A stretch of 64,000 bases of DNA from Dehalococcoidia bacterium (lineage in GTDB: Bacteria > Chloroflexota > Dehalococcoidia > SHYB01), in the NCBI GenBank assembly GCA_965248515.1, contig CBDFJU010000002.1, positions 767,688-831,687 on the forward strand, read 5' to 3'. The notes beneath the pieces were generated by a model. That model was given only the letters and a program-made list of their open reading frames with translations. It searched no databases and was not told where the DNA came from. Every line of letters starts with the position of its first letter. Within the stretch, counting starts at the first letter, position 1. This document shows, piece after piece, positions 2,336 through 48,409 of the stretch. A program made the translations under genes and the position numbers.

Positions 2336-3120
2336 CCGACGGCCTCGTCGGTGTCGTCATCGCCGCCGGCCTCGGCTCGCGGCTGCTGCCGCTGACGGCC
2401 GAGATGCCGAAGTGCATGCTCCCGGTTCGCGACAAGCCGATGCTTCATTGGGCCCTCGAGACCTTCCGGCATGTGGGGATCGAACGTTCGGTGGTTATCG
2501 GTGGCTATAAGGCGGACCGCCTGGAGATACCGGACGGCGCGACCCTCGTGATGAACCATGCCTTCGCCCACAACAACGTCCTGCACTCGTTTGCCCAGGG
2601 CAGAGCGAAGATCAACGGCTCCAAGGCGGCGCTGGTGAGCTACTCCGACATCATCTTTACGCGCTCGGTGGTCGAACGCCTCCTCCGGTCCGAAGGGCGC
2701 GACATCAGCGTCGTCGTCGATCGGGGCTGGGCGCCCGGATACGAGGGCCGGCTGCACCACCCACTCGATGAGGCCGAAGGGGCCCGGTTCGACGATCGCG
2801 GACTGCTGCGAGAGGTTGGGAAGGGCCTACTCGCGTCCGACAGCCCGCCGCACGAGTGGGGCGAGTTCATCGGCATGATGAAGATGAGCCACCGGGGGCT
2901 GGAGCAGTTCTGGACGGCCTTCGACGACGTCAATGCCAAGACCGGTGAGGATGAGCCGTTCCAAGGCGCCCAGGCCTGGCGAAAGGCATATCTGACCGAT
3001 ATGCTGCAAGAGCTCGTCGACCGAGGGGTCGAGGTGCACTGCACGATCATCGACAGCGGCTGGTTCGAGATTGACACCCAGGAAGACTATGAGCTCGCCC
3101 AGGGCTTCAGGTTTGAATAA
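2332..3120 (+). CDS. Phosphocholine/phosphonate cytidylyltransferase family (LicC/PntC-like)
   Basis: IAAGLGSRLLPLTAEMPKCML, YSDIIF, GEFIGMMK, YLTDMLQEL, WFEIDTQEDY. Confidence 0.85.
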   Translation: MTDGLVGVVIAAGLGSRLLPLTAEMPKCMLPVRDKPMLHWALETFRHVGIERSVVIGGYKADRLEIPDGATLVMNHAFAHNNVLHSFAQGRAKINGSKAALVSYSDIIFTRSVVERLLRSEGRDISVVVDRGWAPGYEGRLHHPLDEAEGARFDDRGLLREVGKGLLASDSPPHEWGEFIGMMKMSHRGLEQFWTAFDDVNAKTGEDEPFQGAQAWRKAYLTDMLQELVDRGVEVHCTIIDSGWFEIDTQEDYELAQGFRFE

Positions 3121-4538: not shown

Positions 4539-5273
4539 ATGGTGCCGAACATCCTTAGCGTGACCCTCGCGAGGGGCGGCTCCAAGAGCATCCCCAAGAA
4601 GAACGTCACCCCCTTGCTCGGCGTGCCGCTGATCGCCTACACGGTGGTCGAGGCGAAGCGGGTGAGCTTCGAGCACGAATACATCGTGTCCACGGACGAC
4701 GAGGAGATCGCCGAGTGTGCCCGAGGCTTCGGGGCCGAGGTGCCGTTCCTGCGTCCGGCGGACCTGGCCGGCGACCAGGCCTCCTCGGCGGCCGCGGTGA
4801 TCCACGCGCTTGAGTGGATGGAGAACGACCGCGGCAAGAAGTACGACATCGTCGTCGAGCTGATGTGCACCAACCCGATGAAGACCTCGAAGGATATCGA
4901 CGCGGTGGTGGAAAAGATGATCGCCACCGGCGCGGACTCGGTCATCGGCGTCACCCGGCTCTGGGACCATCACCCCATGCGGGTGAAGAAGATCGTCGAC
5001 GACCGGCTCGTCGACTTCTGCGTGTACGAGAAGCCGGAGAACCGCCGCCAGGACCTCCAGCCCCCGGCCTACATCCGCAACGGCGCCATCTACGCGGTGA
5101 AGCGCGACGTGCTCCTGGAGACGGGGGCGAGGTACGGCACCGAGCACAGCCGGCCGCACGAGATGCCCGCGGAGGCCTCGGTCAATATCGACTCGCCCAT
5201 AGACCTGCTCATCGCCGAGATGCTGCTCAAGGGCAGCCCGCGACCCTACATCCCGGGGTTCAAGATCGAGTAG
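4539..5273 (+). CDS. Acylneuraminate cytidylyltransferase (NeuA/PseF/LegF family)
   Basis: LARGGSKSIPKKN, VSTDDEEIA, VPFLRPADLAGD, YIRNGAIY, SVNIDSPID. Confidence 0.9.
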   Translation: MVPNILSVTLARGGSKSIPKKNVTPLLGVPLIAYTVVEAKRVSFEHEYIVSTDDEEIAECARGFGAEVPFLRPADLAGDQASSAAAVIHALEWMENDRGKKYDIVVELMCTNPMKTSKDIDAVVEKMIATGADSVIGVTRLWDHHPMRVKKIVDDRLVDFCVYEKPENRRQDLQPPAYIRNGAIYAVKRDVLLETGARYGTEHSRPHEMPAEASVNIDSPIDLLIAEMLLKGSPRPYIPGFKIE

Positions 5274-43363: not shown

Positions 43364-43867
43364 TCAGGCGGCCGCGGCGCCGACGAGGGTGGTGATGCTG
43401 TCCTGCTGCGACCCAGAGAGCACTCGTTCCAGATCGAGCAGGATGATCATCCTCCCTTCGAGTTTCGCGATCCCGATCAGATACTCCGAGTCCTCGTTCG
43501 TAATCACGAGCGAAGGCGGCTCGATTGAATCCTCCGAGATGCGCATCACCTCGTTGACGGCGTCGACGATCATGCCGATGCTCTGGCTCGCGATGTCGAC
43601 GACGACGATACGGTTGTCCTTGCTAACCTCGCCGTGCTCCAGACCAAATCGCTTTCGCAGATCGACAACCGGAATCACCTTCCCCCGGATATTGATCACT
43701 CCCTCGACGAAGTTCGCCGTCTCGGGTACGCCGGTGATCTCCTCCATCCTGATGATCTCGAGTACGGCGTTGATGTCGACGCCGTAGGCCTCGCCGGCCA
43801 GATCGAAGACCACGATCTGCTGCTCCTGGCTTTCACTCTGCTGCTGGGTCTGTCCCTTTTCGCCCAT
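43364..43867 (-). CDS. cheW: Chemotaxis adaptor CheW
   Basis: AAGGAGG RBS and ATG 43867; VVFDLAGEAYGVDI, GVINIRGKVIPVVDLRKRF, GMIVDAV. Confidence 0.95.
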   Translation of the reverse strand: MGEKGQTQQQSESQEQQIVVFDLAGEAYGVDINAVLEIIRMEEITGVPETANFVEGVINIRGKVIPVVDLRKRFGLEHGEVSKDNRIVVVDIASQSIGMIVDAVNEVMRISEDSIEPPSLVITNEDSEYLIGIAKLEGRMIILLDLERVLSGSQQDSITTLVGAAAA

Positions 43868-44053
43868 GGGGCACCTGCCTCCTTGCCGCTGTTTTGAGGA
43901 AGAACGCGACACTTTCAAACCTATCCGCTATCGGTCGCGCCGGTAATGGCAGAACTCCTCATTTCGTTTGGGGGACGCCGGTCGGTAACCATGGTGGAAA
44001 AGCCGCTTCAAGGGGCTGAGGGGCTTCACGCACGAATGAATGGAATGCGATGG

Positions 44054-44080
44054 GTATCGATGAAGCCACCAGACACTGAA
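44054..44080 (-). promoter_or_regulatory. Putative sigma28-like promoter upstream of cheW; overlaps a TTC PAM plus spacer-seed match
   Basis: Minus strand TTCAGTGT-N11-ATCGATAC versus consensus TAAAGTTT-N11-GCCGATAA (5/8 and 5/8). Confidence 0.35.
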
Positions 44081-44170
44081 TAATTCCCGCTCACCCTTGG
44101 GTGGCGTGGGTACCAGCATCTCGCGACCAACTGGGGGTGGGCATGCCGCTGGAGGTCGCGTGGCTTGGTC

Positions 44171-44263
44171 GGAAGGACTCCAGGGGCCTTCCTGGTATCA
44201 CCGGCCACTAAGAGACAACACACTGTTTCAATCCTCGACCCTCTTTCGACGAAGGTCGCAGAT
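44171..44263 (-). CRISPR. Mini-array: one type I-C-like repeat, a 32-nt spacer and a terminal hairpin (possible degenerate repeat)
   Basis: Minus strand ATCTGCGACCTTCGTCGAAAGAGGGTCGAGGATTGAAAC (44263-44225): 8-bp stem followed by an 11-nt AGGATTGAAAC handle; spacer AGTGTGTTGTCTCTTAGTGGCCGGTGATACCA (44224-44193); hairpin GGAAGG-N10-CCTTCC (44192-44171). Confidence 0.75.
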
Positions 44264-44281
44264 CCGGCGGGCAGCCGCCGG
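44264..44281. repeat. GC hairpin between the cas7 stop and the CRISPR repeat
   Basis: CCGGCGG-GCAG-CCGCCGG. Confidence 0.6.
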
Positions 44282-44288
44282 GCGAAGC

Positions 44289-45181
44289 CTATCCAACGAG
44301 ACGAGCGAGCGAGATGCCGGGTGGAAGCGCTCGGTCGTCGACGGTCACCTCGTAGTCCTGAAAGCGACGCGGTGTCGGCGCCCGCAACCTCGCGGTCACA
44401 AGCTCGACAAGCGTATAGGCGGGAGCGTCACCAGCCTTGGCGCTGTGCGTGAACACGTAGAGCCCGCGGCAGGTCATGGTCCCCCGGTTCACCGACCGGT
44501 CCAGGTCCCAGAGGTTTGTCAGCGCATCCCAGAGCAACGACAGGTCCTCCGCCGATGCCCCGGTGTCGTCGGCAAGGAACGGGTTAAACGCGCCCCTCGT
44601 GACGTAGAGGCCATAGGGCACGACGAACCGCCGCCCCATCTGCCCCGATACGGCTTCCACATCCTCTACCTCCCCGCGGGCGACGTCGTCGGGATTGGTG
44701 AGGGCCACCCGCGTAATGGCGAGGTCGATCGGGTTGATCGGGTCCACCGAGCGGGCGAAGGAGAGCTGAACTGGTCCCCTTACCTGGCCGCAATTCCACT
44801 GCTTCCCCCGGAGCTCGCTCCGGCCCGTGGTCATCACGGCGCCGAACATGCGGACGTCGTAATACAGTTGGCACATCTTCCGCCGTGCGTCGTAATTCAC
44901 CGATGCCGATGGCGGGGCGTTCAGTCGCGCGTAGGCCCTCCTCTGCTCCCGCGCCAGAATGCCGCGATGCTTCACGTAGATGTCCTGGTCGTGGACCCGA
45001 TGAACGTAGTCGCGCACCTTGCGTTTCAGGCACACGTCGGTGACCCACCCGTGCATCGTCTCGGGGTCGACGGGGGCATGTTGCCGGCATCGGGGTCGCC
45101 GTTGGGGTTCCCGTCTGTGACGTCGAACACGAGCACGAAGTCGTGGCGCTTGCTGGGGTCGGTGTGGACGGCATCGGTCAT
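44289..45181 (-). CDS. cas7: Type I-C Cas7 (Csd2); 1-nt frameshift at ~45072-45076
   Basis: RHDFVLVFDVTDGNPNGDPDAGNMP (from ATG 45181) joins VDPET..VTDVCLKRKVRDY, YDVRMFGAVM, GQVRGPVQLSFARS, MGRR..VPYGLY. Confidence 0.92.
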
Positions 45182-45198
45182 GGCACGCTCTTTCTGGC

Positions 45199-46908
45199 CT
45201 AGGCGGCCCGTACGTCTCGTTGCCGGGCTGCGACGTCGGCCGGCGCCACATGCAGCCCGGCCCTCTGGTAGTAGTAGCCGAGGGCGAAGAGGCCTTGTCC
45301 TCGGAGGTCCAGCGATTCTGGGAAGGCGGGGAGCTGGCCCAACAACGCGGACACCTCGCCCTGGAGAGCGGCATGGAGCGGCCGGGTCGCGCGTCGGATC
45401 CGCCCCAGGTGTTCCGTGGCAATGCCGATCAACCGCGGGAAGACGCGAGCGGGGGCGGTGGCGGCGGCGCCGAAGGAGCGCCGTGCCGCCGTGGTCTTTG
45501 CCCCGGGGACGGCCCGGCGATGGACGAGGTCCCACAGCGCGAGGAGTCGTCCACAGAGGTAGGCGTGCTCGCTGCCCATCAGCGCTTCGAAGGCGGGACG
45601 TTCCGCCCGAGTGAGGAGAAGGAGCTTGATCAGGGAAGCGAGGGGAGCCTCCATGAACGTCTGTCCGCCATCGGCGACGGTCCTCCCGAGCGAGGCCCGG
45701 CGCACGGCGAGATGCAGAAGCCACTGGGGCAGCGAATCCCCGGCGAAGGCATTCCTGACAAGCGCCCGCGCAACATTCGGGGAGAGACGCGATCTCTCCG
45801 GCGCGCGGCCCTCGCGGCGGCCGGGCAGGACGAGGCTGCGTTCCAGGGCGTGGGGCGAATACCAGCTCCACCGACCTTCTCGATCTGGTAGCCCCTGTCG
45901 AGCGAAATAGGTGGCGAGGTGTTGCCGGGCGGCAAGCACGGTAGTGTCGATCCAGTCCCGGAGAACGATGCGCCCCCCACTCGGAGAAAAGCAGGCGCCA
46001 TACCAGCGGTCGTCGGTCGCCACGCCGTTGCTTGGCTCCAGCGACAGGGAGCGGACGCCGTACTCGTCGGGATGGGCCAGGAGCCCGAGCAGGTTTCCGG
46101 TAGAGCCCTGGTCCGTAAACGCCACGATGGTCGTCATGGAATCCGGCAACAGCGTGTGGGCTGCGTCGTCACTCAGGAGTGCCGTCAGCGTCTCCGTGTA
46201 CCCCTGGGCGCAGGATTGGCAGACAGGGCTCGTTAGGCCCTGGTTGAGCCCATACGACTGGAAGGCTGGGCTATTGGCCGAGACAAGCGCCATCCCTGCT
46301 GGCTGGCCTCCCGCTATGCCCCGAACAATTGGATGGACGCGGGCGATGGGCGCGCTCTTGCCGCACACGAGGCATTCCCCAACAGGCCCCGAATCGAGCC
46401 GCCGCGCCCACCATACCTGGACCGCCTCCCGGTCCACCACCGGCGACTGACCTTCGACACGGAACGCGCATATGTCGTCGCCGAAGAGATCGCCGGGGAG
46501 CTCGAGTTGGGCCGGATTGAGGGTCTCGAGGAAGCGCTGCACGGCGATGACGGCAGGGTCTCCGGTGTCCCGGGCGCAGGCGTGGACCAGGTCGACGAAG
46601 GCGGCGTGGCCCAGGATCGTCCGGGCCCGGCTTCGGGTGCCAAGCATGGGACTCAGGCGCGCCAGGGCGTGCGCGCCGGAATCGGCCAGCAGCCGCGCCG
46701 CCACGTTGTTTGTAACCCGAACGTACGGGAGCGGCCAGCGGACCCCTACCTTGCGCTCCTGAGGCCCCGTTGCTTCCGACGTTCTGACAACATCGACGAG
46801 CCGGCCGTTGAGATCGAGGTCCAGCCACCAGTGGACCGGCGCGGTGCGATATCCGGGAGGCACCGGGACGCCGATCCTCTCGCGGCACTCGACGAGCGCC
46901 CTAAGCAC
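45199..46908 (-). CDS. cas8c: Type I-C Cas8c (Csd1)
   Basis: GTG 46908 overlapping the cas5 stop; MLRALVE, PPGY, CLVCG..ARVHP, LVSANSPAFQSYG, PVCQSCA, AYLCGRLLA, QGLFALGYYYQR. Confidence 0.9.
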   Translation of the reverse strand: MLRALVECRERIGVPVPPGYRTAPVHWWLDLDLNGRLVDVVRTSEATGPQERKVGVRWPLPYVRVTNNVAARLLADSGAHALARLSPMLGTRSRARTILGHAAFVDLVHACARDTGDPAVIAVQRFLETLNPAQLELPGDLFGDDICAFRVEGQSPVVDREAVQVWWARRLDSGPVGECLVCGKSAPIARVHPIVRGIAGGQPAGMALVSANSPAFQSYGLNQGLTSPVCQSCAQGYTETLTALLSDDAAHTLLPDSMTTIVAFTDQGSTGNLLGLLAHPDEYGVRSLSLEPSNGVATDDRWYGACFSPSGGRIVLRDWIDTTVLAARQHLATYFARQGLPDREGRWSWYSPHALERSLVLPGRREGRAPERSRLSPNVARALVRNAFAGDSLPQWLLHLAVRRASLGRTVADGGQTFMEAPLASLIKLLLLTRAERPAFEALMGSEHAYLCGRLLALWDLVHRRAVPGAKTTAARRSFGAAATAPARVFPRLIGIATEHLGRIRRATRPLHAALQGEVSALLGQLPAFPESLDLRGQGLFALGYYYQRAGLHVAPADVAARQRDVRAA

Positions 46909-47560
46909 GGTGGCGGGCCCCAACCGCCAGGTAAAGGTTTTGTGGGATGCGCATCGCACCGTGCTCGAGCCTTGGGAAGAAGAACCGGGGCAGGGCCGGA
47001 TGGCCGTCCGACCCGTAATCCAGGTCGAACAACATCGGTCCAAGGTCCTCGGATATCGGTTGCGGCCTGTCGCCTTTCCGCGGCAGGCCGAAGAAGGCGG
47101 GGAACTCCCGGCAGCCGAGGTAAGGGGTCTGGAAGCATTGTCCTCGCTGCACGCGGCGACGGAATTGGTCCCGATACCCCGCGGGGTCCAGGTTACTCGC
47201 GTGTGGCTTCAAGACGACGTCCGCGTGCACGATGTACGCGACGTCGCGCAATGCGAGCGTATGACGCTGCGCTCGGTGCTCGTCCGCCAGGAAGTCGGGG
47301 CCCGCCCCCACTCGAAGTGTTGCCTTCTCCGTTACCTCGTTCCGGACCAGGGAAACGAACTGTACCGGGCGCAGGACGAGGATCTCGCGGATCTCCCACG
47401 AGAACTCGGGACGCCAGAAGATCGACTCCAGGGCGCCTCGCGCCGCCGAGGGTGTCATGACCGGGTAGCTCACGCGCTCGACCTTCATCTCGGGCCGGGT
47501 GAAGCAGGCGAACTCGCCCCAAAACCGCGCCACTAACGGGGGATCACTGAACGTCGTCAT
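46901..47560 (-). CDS. cas5: Type I-C Cas5 (Cas5d)
   Basis: GGAGG RBS and ATG 47560; WGEFACFTRPEMKVERVSYPVMTPSAARGALESIFWRP, GQCFQTPYLGCREF, DLGPMLFD. Confidence 0.95.
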   Translation of the reverse strand: MTTFSDPPLVARFWGEFACFTRPEMKVERVSYPVMTPSAARGALESIFWRPEFSWEIREILVLRPVQFVSLVRNEVTEKATLRVGAGPDFLADEHRAQRHTLALRDVAYIVHADVVLKPHASNLDPAGYRDQFRRRVQRGQCFQTPYLGCREFPAFFGLPRKGDRPQPISEDLGPMLFDLDYGSDGHPALPRFFFPRLEHGAMRIPQNLYLAVGARHRA

Positions 47561-47610
47561 CGACCATCCTCCACGCATGCGGACAGACTGCCGCTGGGTC
47601 CGCTACTTGA

Positions 47611-47640
47611 ATGGTAGGGTCGACTACACTGAAGTGACAA
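47611..47640 (-). promoter_or_regulatory. Predicted sigma70 promoter of the cas operon
   Basis: TTGTCA-N18-TACCAT on the minus strand ~50 nt upstream of cas5; the inter-hexamer region contains TTC-AGTGT. Confidence 0.55.
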
Positions 47641-47716
47641 AGCCTGCTCCCTTCGGATGCCTACGAAGGGACAGGGTCGCGCCCAGTGAGCAGGTCCTCG
47701 AAAGGAGTCGAGGGGT

Positions 47717-48409
47717 TTAGGACTGGGGGGTAGCCGGGGTGGGGACGGCTTTCCACGTCGCCAGCTCGCGGACGCCGTCGACTCGCCAGGAGAGGTTCCC
47801 GTTCGTGACCAGCTGGAGCTCGTTCTGGATGTGCTGGTTGCCGGGCAGGACGATCTCGACGATGGCCGACGCGGTGTGGCAGCCGATCGACGGGGCGCGC
47901 AGGCTCACCAGATCGAGGCCTTTCCCGAGGTCCCGGGACGCCTCGGGGTAGAACGACTCAGTGGTGACACGGCGAAGGCCATCGATGTTGCTCTCGCGCA
48001 GGAAGCGGAGGTACTCCCTGACAGCGCTCTCCACAACCTCTCGCCGCTGAATCACCTGGCTTGCCGCGCCGCCGATGCCGCCGAGGTTCGACGAGCCGCT
48101 GGAGATGGCCACGCGGCCCTCGACGAGAAGCGAGAAGCCCCGGGCGCCGCCGTCCACGGTGCAGATCACGCTATGGCCGCGCCGCTCCAGCTCGTCGCGT
48201 AGGGCCAACGCAACGTCAAGGGCCGTCTGCCCTGCGGAGACCGGCACCTCGATCTTGGAAGGGGCCGAGAGGACGAGGGTGCCGTCCGCCGTCGCCGAGC
48301 CCTGCAGGCTTACCTCGTAGATGTCGGCGACCTGCTTGGTGTCTCCGTCGTTGGCGCAGGCAGCCACCAGAATTAGGGTGAGGACGGCCAGACTCAGGAG
48401 ACGACGCAT
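47717..48409 (-). CDS. Hypothetical lipoprotein
   Basis: GGAGG RBS; signal peptide MRRLLSLAVLTLILVAAC with lipobox. Confidence 0.7.
   Translation of the reverse strand: MRRLLSLAVLTLILVAACANDGDTKQVADIYEVSLQGSATADGTLVLSAPSKIEVPVSAGQTALDVALALRDELERRGHSVICTVDGGARGFSLLVEGRVAISSGSSNLGGIGGAASQVIQRREVVESAVREYLRFLRESNIDGLRRVTTESFYPEASRDLGKGLDLVSLRAPSIGCHTASAIVEIVLPGNQHIQNELQLVTNGNLSWRVDGVRELATWKAVPTPATPQS

Follow-up and report, generated by a model that had tools for sequence, protein, structure and literature searches.

A solitary, conserved crRNA-like guide unit behind cas7 of a type I-C Cascade locus without detected Cas3 in a Dehalococcoidia bacterium

The 64,000-nt stretch of DNA analysed here (hereafter the window, to which all coordinates given without a contig name refer) carries on its minus strand three type I-C Cascade genes followed by one CRISPR-repeat-like element, which is probably a functional and selected single-guide unit of a nuclease-free type I-C Cascade that acts by DNA binding, regulation being the likeliest purpose. 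The element has the anatomy of a repeat hairpin with a handle and a short guide, occurs once in the genome, stands behind intact Cascade genes and is conserved in two genera; moreover, copies of its PAM plus seed are enriched at the locus. With neither Cas3 nor Cas1 nor an array found in the genome, the complex would be limited to binding DNA, and its role is therefore most likely that of an RNA-guided DNA binder that regulates genes, rather than one in immunity. The RNA element as such belongs to a known kind, namely the solitary repeat units of type I-C systems; what is new is its position after cas7 and its standing as the sole guide found in a genome without detected Cas3, Cas1 or array. 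In the following, the source genome is denoted G000, and the relatives of the same class with which it was compared are G006, G117 and G381.

The cas7 stop codon (TAG, 44291-44289, minus strand) was read directly from the sequence, and an 8-bp repeat-like hairpin starts about 25 nt past it on the same strand. The parts of the element and the interval before it are as follows.

44264..44281, minus strand: small hairpin CCGGCGG-CTGC-CCGCCGG in the interval from the cas7 stop to the repeat, by sequence and fold, with no U-run behind it
44236..44258, minus strand: repeat-like hairpin (psi-R), CGACCTTC / loop GTCGAAA / GAGGGTCG, by sequence and RNAfold
44225..44235, minus strand: 11-nt 5' handle, AGGATTGAAAC
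44193..44224, minus strand: spacer-like stretch (psi-S) of 32 nt, whose conserved core (44224-44211) is taken from the G006 alignment
44171..44192, minus strand: 3' hairpin, GGAAGG (44192-44187) / CCTTCC (44176-44171), not repeat-like, by sequence and fold

The 5' arm of psi-R, CGACCTTC, occupies 44258-44251, the loop GTCGAAA 44250-44244 and the 3' arm, GAGGGTCG, 44243-44236; the arms form eight pairs, one of them G-U, and the stem ends at 44236 with the spacer starting at 44224, so that the original prediction of a stem with one G-U pair ending exactly 11 nt before the spacer is borne out by the coordinates. Its description of the handle as type I-C-like likewise agrees with the finding that G006 and the array repeats of both G117 and G381 carry AGGATTGAAAC unchanged, and the downstream element that it had described as a hairpin without a handle is indeed GGAAGG...CCTTCC with nothing handle-like behind it. 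From published type I-C processing, a Cas5c cut is predicted between 44236 and 44235. The suggested check by RNA folding gave a divided answer: the psi-R stem is present in both the minimum-energy and the centroid structures, whereas the complete 161-nt stretch does not outperform its shuffles (z -1.0), and in the region of the 3' hairpin the minimum-energy fold favours an overlapping CCAGG/CCUGG pairing. Rfam returned a sub-threshold match to the full CRISPR-DR9 model over 44265-44225 (17.9 bits against a gathering score of 45, E 0.41). It is conservation in G006, and not the fold energy, that marks the element as exceeding chance.

The Cas5d/type I-C setting that had been proposed for the repeat is supported by three flanking cas genes, all scoring above curated cut-offs, and one promoter-like site was found ahead of them.

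47611..47640, minus strand: promoter-like site of the cas operon, TTGTCA-18 nt-TACCAT, the only sigma-70-like site in 47450-47800
46901..47578, minus strand: cas5c (Cas5d), pre-crRNA endonuclease subunit; PF09704 at 6.1e-27, TIGR01876 at 144.3 bits against a cut-off of 85
45199..47043, minus strand: cas8c (Csd1), longest open frame; PF09709 at 5e-88, TIGR01863 at 252 bits against a cut-off of 218.65
44289..45422, minus strand: cas7 (Csd2), longest open frame; PF05107 at 3.8e-67, TIGR02589 at 227.6 bits against a cut-off of 182.25

Solved Cas5c chains that bear the name pre-crRNA processing endonuclease match the Cas5c of G000 at E 1e-45, and the PF09709 match of cas8c spans profile positions 9-556 of 559. 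The true start of cas8c probably lies downstream of its overlap with cas5c; similarly, the real cas7 start is probably near 45200-45100, because similarity to relatives begins near residue 110. All three genes are full-length open frames in both G000 and G006, and the cassette of Cascade genes plus guide measures about 3.6 kb, with no cas3, cas4, cas1 or cas2 adjoining the cas5c-cas8c-cas7 operon. On its 5' side stands a lipoprotein-like gene without a family match, which ends in a terminator-like hairpin; the promoter-like site (47640-47611) sits 3' of that hairpin, and shuffled versions of 47450-47800 contained a mean of 0.0 sigma-70-like sites. On the 3' side, family searches identified cheW, cheA, a CHASE-domain protein and a hybrid histidine kinase. 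G000 has two cheA paralogues that are 50% identical (C4:164080-166110 and window 43320-41206), and the copy in the window belongs to the cluster directly behind the cas cassette.

The G000 genome (3.82 Mb, 4 contigs, 91% complete) contains the 12-mer GAGGATTGAAAC once in the window and in one exact copy overall, and a stem ending 11 nt upstream is absent at all 8 one-mismatch copies in the genome. Tandem Repeats Finder (TRF) detected no tandem or CRISPR-like array in the window, and a k-mer chain scan of the genome, which produced 19 clusters, revealed no CRISPR array; the 5 largest clusters, when checked with TRF, were perfect tandem repeats without unique spacers. The repeat is thus solitary, as originally proposed. 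At least two repeats with unique spacers make up a canonical array, and this locus has a single repeat followed by the handle-less hairpin. Long perfect or near-perfect tandem repeats, none of them CRISPR-like, occur at G000:C2 about 78,790-79,100, C2 about 598,840-601,970 and C4 about 1,207,200-1,209,000; they comprise a 60-nt unit in 5.2 copies with 98% identity, a 72-nt unit in 43 copies, probably coding, and proline/glycine-rich units of 30-60 nt.

A complete type I-C system was likewise not found in a genome-wide search that covered Cas3 and Cas1: Cas1 gave 0 matches in the 91% complete genome, and no cas3 exceeded its cut-off, the best cas3_core matches (43 bits against 102.45) being long generic helicase frames. 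As the genome is 91% complete, a missing cas3 or array may sit in the unassembled part. In contrast with arrays and complete systems, several features of a solitary repeat unit are present, namely a repeat-like hairpin with an 11-nt handle that lies outside any array, together with cognate cas5c, cas8c and cas7, and conservation in a related locus, that of G006.

Conservation was assessed among relatives carrying the Cascade genes. A Cas7 match was found in 14 of 61 relatives and, at E 1e-40 or better, in 34 of 401 genomes of the class; among these 401 genomes and 80 metagenome loci, G006 is the sole close relative, belonging to the same family and another genus (Cas5 68%, Cas7 65-69% and Cas8c 44% identical), so that the evidence of conservation comes from two genomes. 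Its 6.3-kb contig carries a GerE-type regulator gene, a terminator, cas5c-cas8c-cas7, a solitary repeat and a PAS histidine kinase gene. The absence of a repeat after cas7 in homologous loci had been named beforehand as the outcome that would speak against the original prediction; G006 has such a repeat at the same position, with the same handle and a conserved spacer start. Around its inner stem lies an unrelated 11-bp stem, and the distance from stem to spacer is the same as in G000 despite an entirely different stem sequence; the G006 fold is well beyond shuffles (z -6.1). The two genomes are identical over 13 nt that include the handle and then over 12 of the first 14 spacer bases, so that a nearly uninterrupted block of 27 nt contains 2 differences; alignment is much poorer on either side of it. 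An 18-bp hairpin follows about 21 nt past the handle in G006; the length of the guide is unconserved (32 nt in G000, about 21 nt in G006), and so is the guide beyond about position 16, both of which fit a short regulatory guide. No Cas1 match and no cas3 above the cut-off were found in G006 (82% complete). Since protein identities of 44-69% would leave neutral DNA scrambled, the comparison indicates that the stem pairing, the register, the handle and the guide start are under selection and that the element is not a relic.

Wider searches returned no closer kin. A scan of metagenomes for the handle-plus-guide pattern gave 0 hits, and a metagenome scan with a Cas7 alignment, from which 80 loci were kept, found none closer than G006, the best being 55% identical. 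A handle-like 8-mer occurs within 600 nt after cas7 in 12 of these 80 loci, four of which (L191, L200, L240 and L251) have arrays directly after cas7; another, L204, proved to stand ahead of cas4 and to have no target, and was set aside. L087 shares the match coordinates of the G006 contig and was counted as the same DNA, not as independent support. A TTGAAAC seen by eye 5' of cas5 in G006 was rejected as a second repeat, no stem preceding it. On the same contig (G006:C70, L028 1-6346) the cassette looks as if inserted into a two-component gene pair (GerE/LuxR-type regulator and PAS histidine kinase), and further downstream in L028 there is a truncated gene with a marginal match to a four-helix-bundle sensor (27.6 bits against a cut-off of 27).

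A scan of the genome collection for the handle followed by AGTGTG listed at least 117 stretches, most of them chance hits or ordinary arrays. Among those listed, three type I-C loci of other phyla, L041 (about 2880-2965), L101 (about 3050-3110) and L117 (about 2060-2175), combine a solitary repeat close to cas5 with a partial self-match, flanked by TTC, in the vicinity: 13/15 in L101, 17 nt in L041 if one base is skipped at position 6/7, and two candidates in L117. They exemplify the solitary repeat units already published; because they were selected by the pattern, these loci say nothing on the conservation of AGTGTG. A promoter TTGACA-17-TATCAC around the L041 target was not returned by the promoter scan, which needs T at the last -10 position, and was discarded.

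On this basis a mechanism may be proposed for the element. It would be transcribed together with cas5c-cas8c-cas7 from the promoter-like site at 47640-47611, and Cas5c would cut at the 3' base of the hairpin (44236/44235) to release an RNA consisting of the 11-nt handle, a short guide and the 3' hairpin, in which the first 14-16 nt or so of the guide would matter. Cas5c, Cas8c and Cas7 are envisaged to assemble on this single RNA, and the resulting complex would be a hard-wired RNA-guided repressor of the CreR or crRNA-like RNA type. Its likeliest sites would be TTC-flanked partial matches in its own promoter, giving autorepression, and ahead of the cheW-cheA operon.

In type I guides every sixth position is usually skipped; accordingly, the first 17 guide positions were scored with every sixth ignored, leaving 15 scored positions, at sites flanked by TTC. 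No full-length guide match exists in the genome, where the best non-self match is 23/34 without a PAM, and of the 111,140 TTC-flanked sites in the genome 5 reach 11/15. Two candidate sites lie in the locus.

47597..47633, minus strand: candidate target a, PAM TTC at 47633-47631, protospacer from 47630, guide positions 1-5 matched
44044..44080, minus strand: candidate target b, PAM TTC at 44080-44078, protospacer from 44077, 11/15

Candidate target a has its PAM and seed between the two hexamers of the cas operon's promoter-like site and scores 9/15, with no further complementarity; TTC plus a 5-nt seed arises in the 161-nt cas5 promoter region for 0.58% of 20,000 shuffled spacers (0.0058). Candidate target b, which lies 147 nt past the start of the spacer and some 130-165 nt ahead of cheW, matches guide positions 1-5, 7, 9, 10 and 13-15 and tops the 111,140 TTC sites, having the longest seed run among the 5 at 11/15; a score of 11/15 within +-300 nt was obtained with 0.135% of 20,000 shuffled spacers (0.00135). 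It is mismatched at guide positions 8 and 11, both of which are conserved. The PAM with the 5-nt seed, TTCAGTGT, has 28 copies in 3.82 Mb, 2 of them in this locus. These two (47633-47626 and 44080-44073, minus strand) are directly repeated at a distance of 3,553 nt, one on each side of the cassette; the pair is read here as guide sites and may alternatively have had a role in the cassette's arrival.

In G006, TTCAGTGT has 15 copies in 2.9 Mb, one of which falls, on the other strand, in the 300 nt or so ahead of cas5 and pairs over 5 nt (shuffle p 0.0074). Because it is replicated in two genomes, the enrichment of PAM plus seed is taken as real. For candidate target b, no convincing TTC-PAM counterpart was found on the G006 contig or near the G006 cheA, and neither TTCAGTGT nor a good guide match occurs near that cheA; the best TTC/TTT site of the contig, at 11/15 with the PAM TTT and 1.39 kb downstream of the repeat (shuffle p 0.029 over the whole contig), is a weak counterpart. 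Contiguous pairing at every candidate site falls short of the published 11-16, the cas promoter sites pairing over 5 nt in both genomes. Since pairing is weaker than in published cases, these sites remain candidates, and any repression exerted at them could be weak.

Other ways of scoring were abandoned. For instance, wobble-tolerant scoring yielded noise in a G+C-rich genome (389 sites at 12 or more, none at 15/15), and gapped guide alignments to the promoter sites, made by eye, gave nothing consistent. A TTC-flanked site in L172 (G006:C73:17610-17627) with one mismatch, at seed position 3, was judged a chance hit at an expectation of about 0.07; a short-chain-dehydrogenase-like gene on the opposite strand has its ribosome-binding site and start codon there.

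The element has probably descended from an array, and its origin bears on the first alternative, that it is a decaying relic, i.e., the last repeat of an eroding array in a locus that is losing parts and has no present function. The stretch after cas7 was examined in 28 loci of the class (29 listed, L161 left out), and the handle motif was found there in three of them, with 1 copy in G006, 3 in G381 and 4 in the part of G117 that was inspected. G117 (L171, G117:C55 1-360) has cas3-cas5-cas8c-cas7, with cas3 on the same contig as the array, which starts about 75 nt after cas7, and no Cas1 match in the genome; G381 (L170, G381:C56 4929-4440) has a truncated cas4 (Pfam profile positions 4-52 of 160), behind which stand an array of three repeats and, further on, unrelated genes, with no cas3 above the cut-off in the genome. 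The array repeats of both end in the same 12 nt as the G000 element. From this shared position and the 12-nt repeat end, it follows that the solitary repeat is the positionally first repeat of a lost array; the G000 element is probably the remainder of an array formerly located behind cas7, whose loss presumably took place in the common ancestor of G000 and G006.

Such a gradient of loss, from G117 with cas3 and an array through G381 with a cas4 stump and 3 repeats to G000 and G006 with one repeat, is what decay would produce, and no strong target was found in the genome. Nevertheless, the handle and guide start stayed nearly unchanged across two genera while the stem and flanks were rewritten, stem pairing and the 11-nt register were kept in both genomes, as were three full-length Cascade genes, and PAM-plus-seed sites are enriched at the locus; a functionless relic is therefore an unlikely account of the element.

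Somewhat less likely still is that the guide is fixed on a phage, a plasmid or an insertion sequence, a mobile element carrying the conserved target, which the nuclease-free Cascade would block by binding alone. The core of the G006 guide recurs only at both terminal inverted repeats of an IS630-family element, whose left end pairs with the guide at 13/13 scored positions, with mismatches only at 6 and 12, and the estimated chance expectation of such a match is about 0.03-0.09 per genome. On the other hand, the triplet flanking that end is CCT and not TTC, its position -1 coming from the TA target site of the element; no homologue of the transposase was found in G000, to whose guide the end is a poorer fit; and the end sequence occurs, with at most 1 mismatch, in 6 of 401 genomes of the class, which is about the reversed-control rate. 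The ends of this element lie at G006:C125:3716-3731 (plus strand) and 4617-4632 (minus strand), the element corresponds to L284 about 1500-2416, and its transposase frame has a break.

An improbable third alternative holds that the element serves RNA processing or stability, either because Cas5c cleavage separates the cas and cheW-cheA transcripts or because the hairpins stabilise the 3' end of the cas mRNA, the released RNA having no guide function. The cas and che genes do share a strand, a terminator scan of 43800-44400 found no terminator-like site between them, and hairpins stand at the 3' end of cas7 in both genomes; however, this explanation leaves the 12/14 conserved bases after the handle and the PAM-plus-seed sites unaccounted for, and the downstream genes differ in G006. 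Finally, it is highly improbable that a type I-C CRISPR-associated transposon left the element behind as a remnant or used it for homing: Cascades without Cas3, Cas1/2 or arrays have been reported on type I-C transposons (in the available text of 10.1101/2021.08.16.456562), a partial guide match adjoins the cassette and the TTCAGTGT direct repeats bracket it, but no transposition gene or domain was seen among the neighbours scanned, TniQ had no match in the G000 genome (control genomes being equally silent), TnsA had none above the cut-off, and the G006 locus has a single TTCAGTGT copy in the opposite orientation.

The preferred reading, a selected single-guide unit that acts by DNA binding, can be placed among known systems. 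In the accessible portions of 10.1101/2024.12.27.630466, solitary repeat units of type I-C systems (Nezha, Gabija and 'CRISIS' systems in Neisseria and others) are cut 3' of the hairpin to leave an 11-nt handle, end in an unrelated 3' hairpin and carry a guide of about 16 nt that pairs, with a mismatch at position 6, beside a TTC PAM at a promoter, where Cascade alone represses without cutting. The present element shares with them the hairpin, the 11-nt handle, the short guide, the unrelated 3' hairpin, the TTC PAM and the Cas5c-Cas8c-Cas7 partners, its cut and action being predicted, and the likeness to regulatory mini-arrays of the CreA/CreR type that had been suggested for it agrees with those portions of the report. 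There, the units belong to complete systems, have cas3 or inserted defence genes on one side and cas5c on the other, and pair over about 16 nt with a defence-gene promoter; in contrast, this element lies after cas7, with candidate sites at its own promoter and ahead of chemotaxis genes, and pairs more weakly.

Similarly, CreR autorepression is described for types I-B, I-E and V-A in the available text of 10.1101/2023.03.10.532045, where creA-like I-C elements are mentioned in a supplementary figure. CreR, as presented there, and this element are both degenerate mini-CRISPRs with a guide that partly matches the promoter of the effector genes, whereas the promoter match of this element, unlike that of CreR, consists only of the PAM and 5 nt. 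According to the same portions, CreR competes with ordinary crRNAs and thereby senses their amount; G000, in contrast, is without other crRNAs to compete. The introduction of that report also states that CreTA RNA toxin-antitoxin pairs make Cascade genes addictive, and by analogy a lone crRNA-like guide could explain why Cascade genes outlast the other parts of a system; no short frame with a ribosome-binding site was seen by eye in 44150-43920 as a CreTA-like toxin, CreT genes being heterogeneous and without a model. An RNA anti-CRISPR, a solitary repeat of viruses and plasmids that serves as a decoy and has no Cascade of its own, was rejected: the element is chromosomal, stands among housekeeping-type genes, follows its own Cascade genes directly and carries a guide that is conserved.

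Standalone repeats and mini-arrays that are conserved in related loci and carry guides partly complementary to cas promoters were surveyed by Shmakov et al. (PMC10120712), and the elements described in the accessible part of that work resemble the present one in the conserved repeat-like sequence and the guide that partly matches a cas promoter. As far as that part describes it, the survey began from genomes with arrays and mapped elements on Cas3 trees, type I-C appearing once in the main text; a G000-like locus, being without Cas3 or array, would fall outside its design. In addition, type I-C Cascades without Cas3 are on record in two forms, the first transposon-borne with Tn7 genes (10.1101/2021.08.16.456562) and the second with a Cas8-Cas5 fusion, with no guide found in either. 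Both forms share with G000 a set of Cas5, Cas7 and Cas8c without interference or adaptation genes, whereas the G000 locus has separate genes, no transposition genes found and a conserved guide. In the portions of the literature that were accessible, supplementary lists aside, no account was found of a type I-C Cascade that is without Cas3 and retains one conserved guide.

A more far-reaching version of the regulatory reading, to be entertained only tentatively, is that the locus holds a fully domesticated type I-C Cascade, which lost Cas3, the adaptation genes and its array and was retained with one hard-wired guide as a chromosomal RNA-guided transcription factor for host physiology, whose sites bracket its own cassette and make expression of the adjacent chemotaxis and signalling genes depend on how much of the complex is present. 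If this holds, the system would be a natural CRISPRi regulator of host physiology and not of defence genes, the dependent genes being cheW-cheA in G000 and the marginal four-helix-bundle sensor gene in G006. Regulatory crRNA-like RNAs have so far been described as accessories of complete systems, in which they tune cas, toxin or defence genes. If the complex is a binder only, CRISPR machinery would here survive purely as a regulator, in two genera, and this would explain the persistence of Cas3-less Cascade loci that are usually dismissed as decay and that array finders, as well as surveys anchored on Cas3 or arrays, miss by design.
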